Virus record (IMG/VR): IMGVR_UViG_3300014019_000001
Coordinates: 1 to 64,000 of that record
DNA: 64,000 nt
DNA from: a virus
Lineage: Duplodnaviria > Caudoviricetes
Strand: one strand, 5' to 3'
Every line of letters starts with the position of its first letter. Position 1 is the stretch's first letter. Shown in pieces: positions 5,471 through 46,438 of the stretch. The position numbers and the translations under genes are program-made. Below the pieces are notes generated by a model. The model made no database searches and had not been told where the DNA came from. It saw nothing but the letters and a program-made list of their open reading frames with translations.

Positions 5471-5517
5471 CGGAAACTCCTTTGGCAGAATTATAAGTAA
5501 GTGATTACCTACTTACA

Positions 5518-34037: not shown

Positions 34038-34364
34038 TTAGCCATTTCCGACCCGTCGACCGGTGTTGTATTCGACCTGAACGGCGCGATCGTCCCAGAA
34101 CTCGATGAGACCGAGATCCTTGACGCAGGTGATCGGAAGGGTCCGGCCAAACTGCATCATGCAGAACACGTTGATCGCCGGCGCGTAGTTCTCGTTGGTC
34201 GAGGCGCGCGCCGTGAAGATGCGCACGTCCTTGCCTTCGTCGAGCCACTGGCGCACTCGGCCGACCATCGCGGGAATGGGAGCGCCGACGTGATCGATGC
34301 CGCGCCAGTGGTCGTATTCCGCCAGCGTGCCGTCGAGATCGACGCCGATCCAGCCCTTAGCCAT
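34038..34364 (-). CDS. HAD-family phosphatase-like protein
   Basis: IGVDLDGTL, IFTAR and WDDRA motifs. Confidence 0.8.
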   Translation of the reverse strand: MAKGWIGVDLDGTLAEYDHWRGIDHVGAPIPAMVGRVRQWLDEGKDVRIFTARASTNENYAPAINVFCMMQFGRTLPITCVKDLGLIEFWDDRAVQVEYNTGRRVGNG

Positions 34365-34653
34365 CGACGATCTCCCAATCCTCTGCGAGGATATCGGTCT
34401 GCGAGGCGAGCCAGCCGGTCACGGTCGAGCCGTCAGCAGCACGCAGATTGAGGTTGGGCATACGAACCGACGTGCCGCGATCGCCTTCCTCGAAGAGGGA
34501 GTTGCGCACGCCGCCGGTGAGCAGCGCATTCGTGGTGAGCGGCGGCCGGGAACCCTTGTTGAGGAAGACGAACATCCCCTTTCCGTTCCAGCCGTCACGG
34601 GCGACACGCCCGCCGCCCGACTTCAGGTGTTCGATTGCAGCTCCGAAATTCAT
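34357..34653 (-). CDS. DUF2829 / Tad2-like anti-defence sponge
   Basis: MNFG.A..LK.G..VAR.GWNGKGMF...W.ASQTDILAEDW signature. Confidence 0.8.
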   Translation of the reverse strand: MNFGAAIEHLKSGGGRVARDGWNGKGMFVFLNKGSRPPLTTNALLTGGVRNSLFEEGDRGTSVRMPNLNLRAADGSTVTGWLASQTDILAEDWEIVDG

Positions 34654-41325: not shown

Positions 41326-41778
41326 TCAATCACTGTGCTTCACCGAACGCACCTCGCCGCCGGTCCATGGGTCGACCTCAATGGTCAGCCGGATCGCGTC
41401 CTCGGCGCTCTTGCCCAGCTTCATCGCCATGTAGGCGCTCTGCTGCCCGGAGCCGATGGCGTAGAAGTCGGCTTTGACCGGTCCTGTGAATGCCCGGCCG
41501 TCGTTCCAGTAGAAGGCAGATCCGTCCGGCTCGACGACCAGCGCCTGAACAAGGTGCTCCTGATCGGCCACAGCGCGCTCCAGGGCGGCGTCATCCGGTA
41601 GACTGTTCAACCAGGCCAGAAAGTTGCTGGGCGCGCCCACGACGCTGCTGGAGACGCCCACAAGGCGGCCGCCGCGCAGGCGAAAGACCTTGGTCTTGTT
41701 CCCGATGGGATGCTTGTCGCCGGAATAGGCCCGGCTGTCACCTGCGAGGATGCCGGCGCGATAGGCGATTGTCGTCAT
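41326..41778 (-). CDS. Ntn-hydrolase / HslV-like peptidase
   Basis: N-terminal MTTIA..AGDSR, AIGSG, D..TGG. Confidence 0.8.
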   Translation of the reverse strand: MTTIAYRAGILAGDSRAYSGDKHPIGNKTKVFRLRGGRLVGVSSSVVGAPSNFLAWLNSLPDDAALERAVADQEHLVQALVVEPDGSAFYWNDGRAFTGPVKADFYAIGSGQQSAYMAMKLGKSAEDAIRLTIEVDPWTGGEVRSVKHSD

Positions 41779-42116
41779 GCAAGATCGCCCAGAATGCGCT
41801 TCGGCTGCATGATCGCCCGGTTGAGGCGATAGAAGGCGTCCTCGACGTGCCGGCGCGCGATCTGCACGGAAGCTTGGTCGATCTCCTGGCTGTCCCGGTT
41901 GCGAACGTGCTCATCGACGCGGCGCAGAACCTTTTCCTCCAGGATCTTGTTCTCGTTCACCATGTCGATCTTCCACTGCTCGACGGTCTTGGCGTAGCCG
42001 GCGACGGGCAGGCCGGAATGACCGGGAATAGGCGAGGGCGCCTTCTGGTCGTCAAAGAGGGGAAGTTGATGCGTGTCGGCAACCTCGGCGGCACGCTGCT
42101 GCTCGGTTCGGTCCAT
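41775..42116 (-). CDS. Acb2-like anti-CBASS sponge
   Basis: VAGY..IDMVNENK...IAR..VE.AF..LNRAIMQP follows the Acb2 pattern; true start 42116 (longer ORF overlaps tRNA). Confidence 0.7.
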   Translation of the reverse strand: MDRTEQQRAAEVADTHQLPLFDDQKAPSPIPGHSGLPVAGYAKTVEQWKIDMVNENKILEEKVLRRVDEHVRNRDSQEIDQASVQIARRHVEDAFYRLNRAIMQPKRILGDLA

Positions 42117-42142
42117 TCGATGATCCTGTGGGGTAGGGGAGT

Positions 42143-42218
42143 TGGCTGAGGAGGCTGGGCTCGAACCAGCGACAGGGCGATTAACAGTCGCCAGCTCTAC
42201 CATCTGAGCTACTCCCCA
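42143..42218 (-). tRNA. tRNA-Asn (GTT)
   Basis: Cloverleaf with anticodon loop CTGTTAA, TTCGAG T-loop, G73, encoded CCA. Confidence 0.95.
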
Positions 42219-42222
42219 ACGT

Positions 42223-42299
<77 letters not shown>

Positions 42300-42550
42300 T
42301 TGATGGGAAGATCCTAAGTAAGTGATTACCTACAGTCAAGCGCGATTTAGCGAAAAGGCTATTTGGCTATAGAGCGCTATCGCTAGGAGAGGTGGCTACA
42401 GGCAGTTCCGGATCTGTGGGGCCGGGGTAGACGCAACTTAGGTCAAGGTCCATCTCGTCGGGACACAGAGGAGAGGTGGCTAGGATGCCGGGGAGTTGGT
42501 GAGCGATGGAGGTATCCCCTTGAAATCACACGCAAATCTCTAAGACTTCG

Positions 42551-42580
42551 CTTGCACTACTCGCAGCAAACGTCTAATGT
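42551..42580 (+). promoter_or_regulatory. Sigma70-type promoter of the GG-free island
   Basis: cTTGCAC-N17-TAATGT, close to rhizobial CTTGAC-N17-CTATAT consensus. Confidence 0.7.
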
Positions 42581-42615
42581 GTATTCATCAACAGAGAGCA
42601 AGTAGCTCAGTTGAT

Positions 42616-42645
42616 TTGAAGCAAGCGCTTCAAGCTCTTTGACAT
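42616..42645 (+). promoter_or_regulatory. Hairpin + boxA-like antitermination signal
   Basis: TTGAAGC-AAGC-GCTTCAA hairpin directly followed by GCTCTTTGACAT. Confidence 0.55.
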
Positions 42646-42719
42646 TCGAATAGATGACATGCGACGCATCCCGATTGAGCGCGTTCATGTCACAGAAAGC
42701 TAATATTTCATCTTCAATA

Positions 42720-42739
42720 GTAAGTCATTACTGACTTAC
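42720..42739. promoter_or_regulatory. Operator palindrome (perfect copy of the ~28-member family)
   Basis: GTAAGTCA-TTAC-TGACTTAC upstream of the RBS of 42761. Confidence 0.85.
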
Positions 42740-42760
42740 ACAACATGAGAGAGAACGAAC

Positions 42761-43336
42761 ATGACTGACAATAACAACGTATTCTCGACCGCTCTTAACG
42801 CTCGCGTTGACGCTGCTGTCAAAGCTGACAAGATGAGCGAGAGCAACCGTGAGAAGCTTCGCAACTTCGCGAAAGAGTGCAACAAGTCTGAAAAGCTCGT
42901 CGCTTTCTTGAGCGCGTGCGCTGTTGACGTGCGCGTATTTGAAAACGACGTCTACGAGATCGACAAGCTGCGCAATCTGTCGCGCTTCGCAGTCGATGAA
43001 ATCGCAGCGCGCGATTTCAACGAAATGAACAGATGCGTGTTCCTGACAGCGCTCGCTTTCGAACGCGCTGATATCGCGTTCACGAGAGAAGACGCGACAC
43101 ACGCTTGCAGCGCGCATTACAAAATCAAAGACGCGAAAAAGCGCGCGCTGACTTCGCAGAACGCAAAGACTGTCGCTGACAGCACAGTCGCATCGCAGCA
43201 TAGAAGCTCGCTCAAAGCGCTTGAAGCGCTGAACGTGCTTCGCAGCGTCAACAAGAGCGAGTTTCGCATGAACCTGCAAAGCGATGCGACGATTAAGCTC
43301 GCAGCGAAATTCAATATCGACCTGACGGCTAAGTAA
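42761..43336 (+). CDS. Gly/Pro/Trp-free protein, probable winged-helix regulator, paralog of 44351..45136
   Basis: 191-aa ORF with own promoter and leader; C-terminal STVASQ..SSLKALEALNVL..EFRMN wHTH-like; visible similarity to 44351..45136. Confidence 0.8.
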   Translation: MTDNNNVFSTALNARVDAAVKADKMSESNREKLRNFAKECNKSEKLVAFLSACAVDVRVFENDVYEIDKLRNLSRFAVDEIAARDFNEMNRCVFLTALAFERADIAFTREDATHACSAHYKIKDAKKRALTSQNAKTVADSTVASQHRSSLKALEALNVLRSVNKSEFRMNLQSDATIKLAAKFNIDLTAK

Positions 43337-43422
43337 GCACTTACTGCTAGAGCGCTAGAAATAGCGCTCTAGCTATTTCGCTAAATAGCCCAACCGGGCA
43401 TCCCGCGCCCCTGGAGCCACCC

Positions 43423-43953: not shown

Positions 43954-44303
43954 CCCCAAGGCGCCCTACCAAGGGCGCCAGCGGGAGCCGCCCGCCGACC
44001 CATGGAAGCCCACGGAGCCCCGTGGAGAGCGTTTCCCATGGTCGCATGAGCGCTGGCCCGTCCGAAGGGCCAAACGCGCGTCCTGGGCCGCCTGTGCCAA
44101 TATGCGCCCCATGGGGTGCCATGGCGAAAGCCCGAAATCAGGAAATAGCGAAATCGGGAAAGGAATACGAAGGTGCTGGTCCTACGGCCGACCAGCACCG
44201 GATCCCATGGAGCCCACCGGTTCCCCTAAGCCGCTCCGCCTGAATTCGCCCTAGGCTCACAATCGCCGCCCATGGAAACCCATGGGCCGTAACCCGCCAC
44301 GAA

Positions 44304-44350: not shown

Positions 44351-45136
44351 TTACGCCGCCAGCACCTCCTGGAGGCGCTTGGTCTGCGGCGTGTCGGTCA
44401 GCTCGTAGACGGGCGCGCGGAACGTGCCGGAGTTCTTGACGATGCCCATCGTCTGGAGAGCCGTCATGGTCGAGGACGTCTGCGTCGACATGGTGCCCGG
44501 ATCGACGGTGTGGCGGATGAGGATCTTCTGCATGGCGGCGCTGACCTTCACCTTGTCGCAGGCTGCAGCCTTCGCCATCTCCCCGGTGAACTTCTCGCCG
44601 GCGGCGCGGAAGGCGAAGAGGCTCTTGCAGATGGCGATGTTGATCTTGTTGGTCAGGGCGCCGTCCCGGAGACCCTTCACCAGGTCAGCGAGCTTGTCCG
44701 CCGCGTAGACGTTGAAGCGGCTGCCTTCCGAGACGGACCGGTTGATGAAGTCGGGCTCGACCTGGGCGGCGATGAGGATTGCCGCTGCGGAGGGCAGGGT
44801 GAGCTTGGCGCGCGTCTTGTCCAGGCTCTTGTGGATCCGCTCGTTGTTCGGGTTCTTGGTCTTCTCGTAGGTCGCCCGGTCGTCGAAGCCCTTGGCGACC
44901 TTCTGCGCCATTGCCAGCTTCTGCTCGTCCGTGTAGCTGTCAGCGATCTGGGGCAGGGTGAGCTCGACAGCGCCGTCGCCGGCCGGGCCGGGGTCAGACT
45001 GGACCGTTTCCGAGACTACGACAGTATTGCCGTCGCCCGTTTCGAGACCGGCGAGAATAGCAACTTCGTGATCCGTGATGACTTCCTCGGATACGACGGT
45101 CGCCTGTGCCTTCTTTGCGTTGTTGTTCTTAGCCAT
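44351..45136 (-). CDS. Probable winged-helix regulator, normally coded paralog of 42761..43336
   Basis: NVYAADKL..N..N..AF..FT.E.A..TV..T.STQ.SS..AL..GIV; start MAKNNN. Confidence 0.8.
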   Translation of the reverse strand: MAKNNNAKKAQATVVSEEVITDHEVAILAGLETGDGNTVVVSETVQSDPGPAGDGAVELTLPQIADSYTDEQKLAMAQKVAKGFDDRATYEKTKNPNNERIHKSLDKTRAKLTLPSAAAILIAAQVEPDFINRSVSEGSRFNVYAADKLADLVKGLRDGALTNKINIAICKSLFAFRAAGEKFTGEMAKAAACDKVKVSAAMQKILIRHTVDPGTMSTQTSSTMTALQTMGIVKNSGTFRAPVYELTDTPQTKRLQEVLAA

Positions 45137-45386
45137 TTCGTGTTTCCTTCTCTCTCGTTTTCCTCTCAAGCGCTTCATTGCTCTTGATGATTACAAGATA
45201 GAACGTGTCTCTATGGGTGTCGGCTGGGAAGAACAGGCATGTTGCATGGTAATACAGGACCGTTACTCCATGGGACCGGAAGGTTCTCCACGGAGCCCCA
45301 CGGAACGCCATGGCTGACCGTGGAGAGGGGAGGGCGAGCCATGGGCCGGGAAGATGATTTGTCCCTAAGGAGACGGCGCGCGTTTT

Positions 45387-45511
45387 ACGAGCCGGAGGAG
45401 TGCCATTTTAGTTTTCCCTTAATTCGCGTCTCCATACTATGTATATATACCCTTTAAAGACGTAATAACTTACTTAGTATGGAAGAGGCGAGGGAAGCGT
45501 CTCCGGCTCGT
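45387..45511. repeat. Inverted-repeat element, copy 3 of 3
   Basis: ACGAGCCGGAG..TTCCCT..TCCATACT / AGTATGGAAGAGGCGAGGGAAGCGTCTCCGGCTCGT. Confidence 0.8.
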
Positions 45512-46438
45512 GGGTTGGTAGGCGATTCCGTGGGTGGATGGGTTTCCGGCCGTGGAAGTCCGTGGTGAACCTTGGCGCGGCCACCTCACCACCGCTTTTC
45601 GATCGCCCTTCAATCTTCCTAGGCTCTTCGCTTTCTTCACCCTCTACGCGTTCACGCTGTCGCTCACTCTAGCCTCAGTCTCCCTATAGCTCTCCTAGGC
45701 TACGCTCCTTTCTACAGTCGCACGTTCACCTCATACGCACCTGGTCTTCTCCGGCTCGTGCTTCTTCTGGTGATCGCCCTTTCGCTCATTCGGGAAATAG
45801 CTATTTCGTGTGATCGCTATTGCGCTACGCCAGTGTGTTGCCAGTTGCTGCGTCTCCTGTGTGCTGTTTCGCTCAGGGTTGATCACCTGATAGCGTCCAT
45901 GACTCTTCTGCGTGTCGTTGCTGCTCTCGGGCGTGTTTGCTTGCTGGTGAGCTTCTATGCGTCTTTGAGGGTTTCGCCTGTTCATGGCTGTAGCGGTTTA
46001 CCGAAATCGCTTTTTCGCTATTTACGGATTTGGCTGCAAACCTGGTGCTAAGCTAGGGCTAAGGATCCTCTTATTCCGGATAAGAAGGTTGGCGGCCGGG
46101 CCTAGGTTCATTTCGATGGCGAAACGGTATGGAGCCATGGGATTGAGCGCCCGTGGAAGGCCGTGGAGTTGACGGCGCGCAAAGGAAAGGGCAGAGCGCG
46201 GAGAAAGGATAAGCCGCGACATCTGCCCTTTGGTAGGTGCCCAAGCACCCGGCGAGCGATAGTTTGCAGACTACCGCCGCCCTTCCTTTGCCTGACCTGC
46301 CGGGGGAGAAACTCCGGCATTCAGTGCTGTCGGTGTTATTCCACTAGGAGGGCGCATGAATCCCACCTGCTTGCACGACCGCCGACTGCGCGCTAGTAAC
46401 CGCTTACTTAGTTATAGCGGCCGGAGAGAGGCTTGCGC

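Follow-up and report, generated by a model that had tools for sequence, protein, structure and literature searches.

A phage gene and its leader written almost without GG and CC dinucleotides in distantly related phage-plasmids

Layout and composition of the locus

We analysed a 64,000-nt stretch (the window) of the 116,399-bp genome of a tailed phage, a rhizobial phage-plasmid, and describe an island within it in which a gene, its leader and its terminator hairpin are written almost without GG or CC. On its left lie tRNA-Asn and tRNA-Met (42143–42299, minus strand), the first genes of a divergent leftward unit; an Rfam search of 41.5–46.8 kb found nothing beyond these two tRNAs. Next comes a conserved upstream element (42385–42511, plus strand) that ends at the last GG (42511–12) and contains two copies of AGGAGAGGTGGCTA (42385–98 and 42469–82) and a small CCGG hairpin. 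With 25 GG per 130 nt, against a genome mean of 9.2 (s.d. 3.4), it ranks with the stretches of highest GG density in the genome. The matching region in relatives holds 30–31 GG, and in most of 12 aligned relatives the word AGGAGAGGTGG-TAGGA-CCGGG keeps a fixed distance (about −68) to the leader motif. Helical periodicity of GG in this block was rejected (autocorrelation ≤0.15), leaving a specific conserved word rather than a phased array. Chi-like protection by the G-rich flank was set aside by reasoning only, as its orientation would shield the outside and not the island.

Promoter-like sequence marks the island boundary (42516–42550, plus strand). The island opens with ATCCCC (CCCC at 42516–19), followed by CTTGAA (42519–24), a 16-nt spacer and TAAGAC (42541–46), the last within TCTAAGACTTCG (42539–50). 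This word is identical in 15 loci whose proteins fall to 18% identity and occurs as variants in three more distant loci; almost everywhere among these loci, the final GG before the island lies within a few nucleotides of −28 from the word. The promoter around TCTAAGACTTCG is putative, and a simple sigma-70 scan did not call a promoter there.

A structured, untranslated leader precedes the gene (42551–42760, plus strand). It is about 210 nt long, or about 220 nt from the start of the invariant word (42539–42550) to the ATG (42761), longer than the ~175 nt given in a preliminary description of this DNA. Two hairpins (42587–96/42606–15 and 42616–22/42627–33) both keep their pairing through double, compensatory changes. 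The leader further contains a boxA-like word, GCTCTTTGACA (42634–44), on which a literature search found no paper, the word GCATCCC (42666–72) and an operator-like palindrome, AGTAAGTCATTACT (42719–32). It has no GG and two CC, both counted from one CCC. The ribosome-binding site, GAGAGAGAA (42747–55), lacks GG, whereas other genes of the phage have GGAGAGAGAA. We propose that a weakened ribosome-binding site, together with the loss of three amino acids described below, is the price of the purge.

The open reading frame (42761–43336, plus strand) encodes a 191-aa protein. An operator-like palindrome, TAAGTAAGCACTTACT, lies over its stop codon and is followed by a terminator hairpin with a T-rich tail (43330–43380, plus strand), formed by a perfect 12-nt inverted repeat with arms at 43346–57 and 43362–73 and a 4-nt loop. 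The palindrome at the stop codon belongs to a word family, TAAGTAAG.

The purge is unmatched elsewhere in the genome. A dinucleotide scan found a GG-free run of 816 nt on the plus strand (42512–43327), the longest in the window; the runner-up measures 122 nt within the window and 146 nt genome-wide, and no other region comes close. From its base content (194 G and 211 C; GC 0.50 vs 0.594 for the window), 46 GG and 54 CC are expected in the island, which has 0 and 10. Three of the ten CC come from the boundary CCCC, two from a CCC at 42670–72, and the other five lie at 42789, 42847, 43042, 43273 and 43321; none is part of GCC. This recount bears out the preliminary description, which had placed a GG-free stretch at 42513–43326 with CC, after 42520, at these positions only. 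The chance of such a GG-free run is ~1e-21 and that of ten or fewer CC is 2e-13. G and C are still abundant, and GC and CG steps run ~1.7-fold above expectation. A lone GG stands in the final codons (43327–28), and the purged zone extends through the terminator to about 43395, with 1 GG in 885 nt.

It is the nucleic acid, and not the protein, that is under constraint. Purging spans the promoter region, the leader, the GG-less ribosome-binding site, the 191-codon gene with its codon junctions, and the terminator, and it exceeds what the protein sequence would impose. When we held the protein fixed and resampled synonymous codons with genome codon usage, 2,000 trials gave 20 ± 4 GG and 36 ± 5 CC (minima 9 and 19); the gene has 1 and 5. 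The ban on GG and CC therefore yields a product without Gly, Pro or Trp, an absence with P ~2e-12 under the genome's amino-acid usage. Both points, the missing residues and the constraint on nucleic acid, had been made from first inspection, and the translation and the codon-aware null agree with them.

Conservation of the GG/CC purge

The island recurs in relatives whose proteins have diverged widely. Relatives were reached through a protein cluster search, the invariant leader word and a profile search; searching 50,697 phage records with the unit by blastn and tblastn, and IMG/VR with a back-translated pattern, gave no match. In all, 17 related loci have GG/CC-free islands of 0.7–1.5 kb although their proteins fall to 18–31% identity. 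Normal GG/CC content in orthologous loci would have refuted the idea in the preliminary description, but at these identities they too are GG/CC-free. The leader word alone retrieved seven further IMG/VR relatives and the record of Rhizobium phage RHEph10 itself, with islands in the same 0.7–1.5-kb range. In RHEph10 and in Rhizobium phage RHph_X66 (hereafter X66), the syntenic genes share about 30% identity or less with ours, and the islands measure 1058 nt and 792 nt, respectively. The deposited annotation of RHEph10 chose an opposite-strand open reading frame at the island gene.

The ban is actively kept. The cluster search gave four homologues at 81–91% identity. Among homologues at 80–91% identity, four-fold sites differ by 35–63% in the plus frame and all copies stay purged; because synonymous positions have turned over this far without restoring the dinucleotides, sequence comparison indicates that the purge is maintained by ongoing purifying selection. 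Some relatives' islands hold a second small gene, likewise without Gly, Pro or Trp. Three distant members (L128–L130) have the same synteny and islands of 0.9–1.3 kb in which CC is banned as strictly as GG, and a copy from Shinella runs 889 nt without GG and with one CC. The genomes of island hosts range from 44 to 63% GC.

Avoidance extends over both leader and coding sequence and, in most lineages, over both dinucleotides. Summed over 14 relatives, leaders contain 16 GG and 30 CC against 123 and 201 expected, and coding parts 22 and 63 against 450 and 510. The 11 strictest islands together have 22 GG vs 30 CC. Counts per island are 0–5 GG and 0–7 CC where 27–84 of each are expected. The purge is partly relaxed in two copies whose genomes have ~50% GC: one has 6 GG and 10 CC, the other 9 GG and 24 CC. 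Relaxation is uneven in the clade of loci L003–L005, with GG at 0, 6 and 9 vs CC at 20, 10 and 24; the gene counts are 0 GG and 20 CC in L005 and 9 GG and 24 CC in L004. On a 954-nt metagenome contig, the last 918 nt lack GG and the gene has 20 CC. Avoidance in the strict lineages thus goes beyond the sense strand, and only the L003–L005 clade is asymmetric.

The amino-acid signature extends far into the protein family. A profile built from 12 island proteins found 355 cluster representatives. Among the best 150 of these, which share under 50% mutual identity, 82 lack Gly, Pro and Trp entirely and 97 have at most two such residues. Longer family members of the type of the paralogue described below have a median of 18.5 such residues.

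The encoded proteins, iteron arrays and wider neighbourhood

The island product is predicted to be a winged-helix DNA-binding protein. In its AlphaFold2 model (pLDDT 79.8), the N-terminal part is helical and a winged-helix domain forms the C-terminal part, at about residues 71–187. Winged-helix matches to these residues reach Z 6–7 (rmsd 1.9–3.3 Å over 69–96 residues), in a range, Z under 8, where matches are common, and a BFVD match is a viral protein with a TM score of 0.74. The island protein is the fastest-evolving gene product of its neighbourhood.

A second gene downstream (44351–45178, minus strand) encodes a 275-aa protein of ordinary codon composition, with a disordered N terminus and a C-terminal winged-helix domain in its model (pLDDT 79.4; residues 160–275, Z up to 9.2, rmsd 2.1 Å over 78 residues). 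Only one winged-helix domain is clear in each of the two models. BLASTP aligns the two proteins at 28% identity over 107 aa (E 2e-6), and hhalign of the two family profiles gives a probability of 90% (E 1.6e-6); on these alignments, the two genes are old paralogues. Orthologues of the paralogue, at 39–81% identity, occur in 9 of 11 island-bearing loci searched, and the other two have little or no downstream DNA. Pfam, PHROGs and NCBIfam gave no family match for either protein, and Foldseek against the PDB gave nothing significant.

Arrays of CC-NN-GG iterons flank the paralogue gene. Array A (43996–44290) has nine CCRYGG, mostly CCATGG, several at 10-bp spacing; array B (45268–45566) has nine more, with runs at exact 10-bp spacing; and a further trio lies at 46135–46166, making 21 copies altogether. 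Outside the arrays, CCRYGG is seen 120 times against ~226 expected. All ten relatives examined, and also L128 and L129, have arrays of CC-NN-GG at 10–11-bp spacing downstream of the island; most are CCATGG, but those of X66 are CCTAGG and CCGCGG. The iteron centre varies (AT, GT/AC, TA, CG) and the outer CC and GG stay; what is constant in the iteron is thus the very pair of dinucleotides that the island excludes. Wherever the downstream DNA reaches far enough, island, paralogue and CC-NN-GG arrays occur together.

The wider region encodes ParA, ParG, an Acb2/Tad1-hairpin protein and a Tad2-like protein. In X66, a RepC-type replication gene is annotated elsewhere in the genome, as are RtcB and RNA ligase 2. 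The RHEph10 group has been discussed among phage-plasmids (PMC7969092). Upstream of the terminase gene, a conserved operon of two ParB-N proteins, an ABC ATPase and a GNAT-like protein runs into the packaging genes; GNAT is a weak assignment (Pfam E 0.008, otherwise language-model neighbours only). A literature search on COG2401 found no paper. Stenotrophomonas phage BUCTxx99 has the two ParB proteins, the ABC ATPase and the GNAT-like protein at 43–55% identity, and a search of its 109 kb found no island, island gene, paralogue, ParA or phased arrays. BUCTxx99 keeps the operon without the island; the island therefore goes with the plasmid-type module and not with the ParB–ABC–GNAT-like operon.

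Restriction sites have been purged across the genome. Seen against expected counts are 0/157 for GTAC, 0/41 for CAGCTG, 0/28 for CCGCGG, 0/21 for CCCGGG, 2/20 for AGGCCT and 0/17 for CACGTG. X66 shares with this genome the complete loss of GTAC and CACGTG. When the two are compared together with BUCTxx99, only this genome lacks CAGCTG, CCGCGG and CCCGGG altogether, and BUCTxx99 has a different set of sites at zero. The island is rich in other targets (20 GCGC, 15 CGCG, with CTAG and GATC also present) and therefore is not generally restriction-proof.

Possible readers of the GG/CC step

The pattern is what might be expected if something carried by the phage-plasmid family itself read the GG/CC step on duplex DNA. 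We infer that such a reader exists, that it is element-borne, and that the island protein acts as a regulator. The island would then be a self-contained transcription unit, with promoter region, structured leader, winged-helix gene and hairpin terminator, that purifying selection keeps free of the GG/CC step on both DNA strands. It would hold one regulator gene whose expression is needed at establishment or in plasmid maintenance, and the rest of the GC-rich genome would be subject to the reader. Tentatively, our leading explanation is that a regulator gene is kept beyond the reach of an element-borne reader of duplex DNA. Two lines argue that the reader travels with the element: the ban does not change between hosts whose GC content differs widely, and restriction targets change by lineage while the GG/CC ban stays constant. 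The roughly equal ban on GG and CC in the strict lineages fits a reader of duplex DNA.

The most concrete candidate for this reader is the neighbouring winged-helix system, as predicted from the paralogue gene and the CC-NN-GG iterons at helical phasing. Under this candidate, the island would be the only DNA that these proteins cannot touch. A weakness is that just 3–4 CC-NN-GG hexamers are expected in 900 bp, so avoidance of iteron sites needs no full dinucleotide ban; to our knowledge, winged-helix proteins do not read two base pairs. A covalent DNA mark would be the second candidate, against which stand the lack of any known DNA-modification gene in our searches and the purged GG/CC-containing restriction sites. 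A wider claim, that the reader acts on nearly the whole phage-plasmid genome, as a new covalent mark or a coating winged-helix protein, and that one regulator gene is written outside its reach, is possible but doubtful. Two observations stand against reading on duplex DNA: the GG/CC asymmetry of the three ~50% GC lineages fits a strand-specific or RNA-level reader better, and the boundaries of the unit coincide with those of the putative transcript, which also suits reading at the RNA level.

Escape from host defence is an unlikely alternative. Here the unit would act first during a staged entry and would have been stripped of GG/CC-containing restriction sites or CRISPR PAMs. The phage clearly evolves by target avoidance, as the zero counts of GTAC, CAGCTG and others attest; anti-defence genes (the Acb2/Tad1-hairpin and Tad2-like proteins) lie nearby, and the island protein evolves faster than its neighbours. 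Yet the purged restriction sites differ by lineage and the GG/CC ban does not, across hosts spanning 44–63% GC, and the island is full of GCGC, CGCG, CTAG and GATC. Thousands of GG and CC remain elsewhere, where cutting would still be lethal unless entry were staged, and nothing points to a DNA end close by: every long contig has the island at an internal position, which in this 116-kb genome is at 42.5 kb and ~10 kb away from the terminase gene. Where a contig starts is arbitrary, and just one contig, that of 954 nt, begins at the island boundary; a terminal position judged from contig ends was rejected when the loci proved to be internal chunks. In a general form, as the preliminary description had offered in second place, escape from a GG/CC-directed activity may still account for the purge.

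We consider an RNA-level explanation to have a small chance of being right. In this reading, the mRNA must lack GG to escape an endoribonuclease, a CmdT-type RNA ADP-ribosyltransferase or anti-Shine-Dalgarno binding. Precedents are known in motif-less mRNAs that resist MazF and in CmdT, which acts on GA. The purged zone corresponds to one transcription unit, from about −40 to the terminator; sense-strand GG is rarer than CC in the L003–L005 clade; the family encodes RtcB and RNA ligase 2, by their annotation in X66; and conserved leader hairpins with the boxA-like word would offset weak translation. A reader of GG in RNA, however, does not explain why CC is as strictly banned as GG in the strict lineages and in L128–L130. 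Nor does it account for the 22 nt upstream of the putative −10, which are GG-free in 13 of 14 distinct sequences (1 GG against ~20 expected from the flanks), though this stretch is G-poor and the point weak.

A bulky modification at every GG on both strands of virion DNA is improbable. The preliminary description had proposed that such a mark blocks host RNA polymerase and that this is the first gene to be read; it would be the only one readable on incoming DNA. The conserved promoter region within the constrained DNA would agree with this, as would the conserved operon of two ParB proteins, ABC ATPase and GNAT-like protein. The gene content gives the proposal no support. A six-frame search of the 99%-complete genome with PF00145, PF01555 and PF01702 found no member, while control genomes scored; the genome thus yielded neither a C5 or N4/N6 DNA-methyltransferase gene nor one for TGT/DpdA, other chemistries being possible. 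The operon's GNAT assignment is weak, and BUCTxx99 carries the operon without an island in 109 kb. GG/CC-containing restriction sites are at or near zero, as if unprotected; DNA there is therefore exposed to restriction, which argues, indirectly, against a blanket bulky mark.

That no reader exists, and that chance, foreign composition or a past burst of hypermutation made the island, has virtually no chance of being true: island GC does lie below that of the genome (0.50 vs 0.59), but the run is far too improbable, G and C stay abundant with an excess of GC and CG steps, and the trait survives saturating synonymous change down to 18% protein identity, a conservation that already refutes it. 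We rejected four narrower candidates. GG-to-AG hypermutation would leave an AG or GA excess, and the island has none. DarT1 was dropped as a GG reader because no consensus motif is known for it. If GG/CC were avoided for the sake of oxidative or UV damage, a nearly absolute ban would not be restricted to a single unit. A tRNA-supply reason for the missing Gly, Pro and Trp leaves the purged junctions, leader and terminator unexplained.

The island resembles several known systems in part. The first-step-transfer DNA of phage T5 naturally lacks EcoRI sites, and the leading region of T7 carries gene 0.3/ocr. As in these phages, a small unit that would act before the rest of the genome is safe lacks the sites for a harmful activity. 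T5 and T7, however, avoid a 6-bp host restriction site at the physical end that enters first; the island excludes a two-letter step from both strands and gives up three amino acids for it, and the ban does not vary with the host. Avoidance of restriction sites or PAMs likewise selects short words out of phage DNA, and it is strong in this genome for GTAC, CAGCTG and CCGCGG. Such avoidance is genome-wide, concerns words of 4–8 bp and follows the host, whereas the island purge is local, removes a dinucleotide and does not differ between lineages. Motif-less mRNAs, without ACA for MazF or GA for CmdT, share with the island a whole coding sequence rewritten without a 2–3-nt word so that the product is made; their avoidance is strand-specific and confined to the transcript, unlike that of the island, where CC is also purged in most lineages and the promoter region is included.

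Other parallels concern the proteins and the logic of the purge. In their C-terminal domains, island protein and paralogue are predicted to share the winged-helix fold of proteins that bind repeat arrays, such as TubR of type III partition systems, ArsR/MarR-type regulators and ORC/Cdc6. The paralogue gene lies between phased repeat arrays, as is seen with centromere- and iteron-binding proteins, and by this analogy its product may bind the arrays. Unlike TubR, ArsR, MarR and PadR, the two proteins match no curated sequence family. Iteron-type plasmid initiators such as RepA/RepE combine two tandem winged-helix domains with a gene flanked by iterons; here the paralogue gene has flanking arrays, and each model shows one clear winged-helix domain. 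CpG-free transgenes and vertebrate CpG islands offer an analogy only: there, too, a gene escapes a dinucleotide-directed mark, or what follows from it, by lacking the dinucleotide, but no GG/CC-directed mark was detected here. Literature searches for a GG-free or dinucleotide-free phage gene returned nothing relevant, and we know of no described bacterial or phage system that reads GG/CC with a large fitness effect.

A ban that costs three amino acids and persists in orthologues drifted to ~20% identity implies that something reads GG/CC with large fitness consequences. If the wider claim, of a reader that acts on nearly the whole genome, is true, the composition of its sequence would control the island gene, in a bacterial parallel to CpG-free genes, and over 80 lineages of natural proteins built of 17 amino acids would be accounted for. 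Identifying the reader could bring to light a DNA mark, a form of silencing or a defence that is new, and would also help to explain how widespread phage-plasmids of 110–120 kb become established. The unit is a ready test bed, as GG and CC can be restored by synonymous recoding, and the family constitutes a natural set of predicted folded DNA-binding proteins made from 17 amino acids.

Putative promoter-associated words in and around the island

A single word recurs across the phage-plasmid genome. TAAGTAAG occurs 18 times in the whole genome, against about one copy expected: nine copies lie in the window, at 5494, 9612, 27623, 42315, 43330, 45476, 46410, 50803 and 63642, and nine more lie outside it. 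In about half of the copies the word sits within the palindrome AAGTAAG-NNN-CTTA, preceded by a CTATAnn hexamer 1–4 nt upstream and, 13–14 nt ahead of that hexamer, by an AACCC box. TAAGTAAG thus looks like a single operator common to many phage promoters, a dispersed regulon similar in appearance to that of P1 C1. Three of the 18 copies touch the island, the transcription unit purged of GG and CC.

Two further words belong to the island itself. Its boundary word, CCCCTTGAA (window 42516-42524), is similar to CCCTTGAA, the -35 element recognised by the heat-shock sigma factor sigma-32, a likeness between sequences that we treat as a lead only; if it holds, a sigma-32-like -35 element would explain why the CCs in this word are tolerated. 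In the untranslated leader, just after a hairpin, lies GCTCTTTGACA (window 42634-42646), which is kept in the window's clade and in the distant island-bearing relative L130. The rrn boxA antitermination signal of E. coli is TGCTCTTTAACAA. GCTCTTTGACA closely resembles this signal, and the putative boxA might guard a weakly translated, GG-less message against Rho.

Gene orientation and starts

The island CDS deposited for the relative RHEph10, gp148 (L007:15258-15938, JX483881.1), is placed on the strand opposite the conserved gene. Running opposite to gp148 are the ribosome-binding site GAAAGAGAGAAA with an ATG at about L007:15283 and, upstream of that ATG, the conserved leader word in the conserved gene's orientation.

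Among the neighbouring minus-strand genes are a Tad2-like gene (window 34357-34653) and one for an HslV-like peptidase (window 41326-41778). The longest ORF of the Acb2/Tad1-hairpin protein (window 41775-42203, minus strand) overlaps tRNA-Asn (window 42143-42218, minus strand) with its 5' end, and the protein must therefore start at an internal Met. Genome-wide, GG is densest at the right end of the record, beyond the window: positions 116181-116399 of the genome carry 27-30 GG per 130 nt.

Restriction sites, RNA-ligase and NAD-salvage genes

Restriction sites are purged to an extreme degree across the whole genome. GTAC (0 of 157 expected), CAGCTG (0 of 41), CCGCGG (0 of 28), CCCGGG (0 of 21) and CACGTG (0 of 17) are absent, while AGGCCT (2 of 20) and CTAG (41 of 155) are depleted. 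The purged sets differ in Rhizobium phage RHph_X66 and in the island-less Stenotrophomonas phage BUCTxx99, so each lineage tracks the restriction enzymes of its own hosts.

According to the record annotations, which for RHph_X66 were taken from its 76-120 kb region, RHph_X66 has a gene for RNA ligase 2 and two for NAD salvage (NMN adenylyltransferase/Nudix and nicotinamide phosphoribosyltransferase), and RtcB is present in both RHph_X66 and BUCTxx99. These genes suggest that the phages routinely face host defences that damage RNA or deplete NAD.
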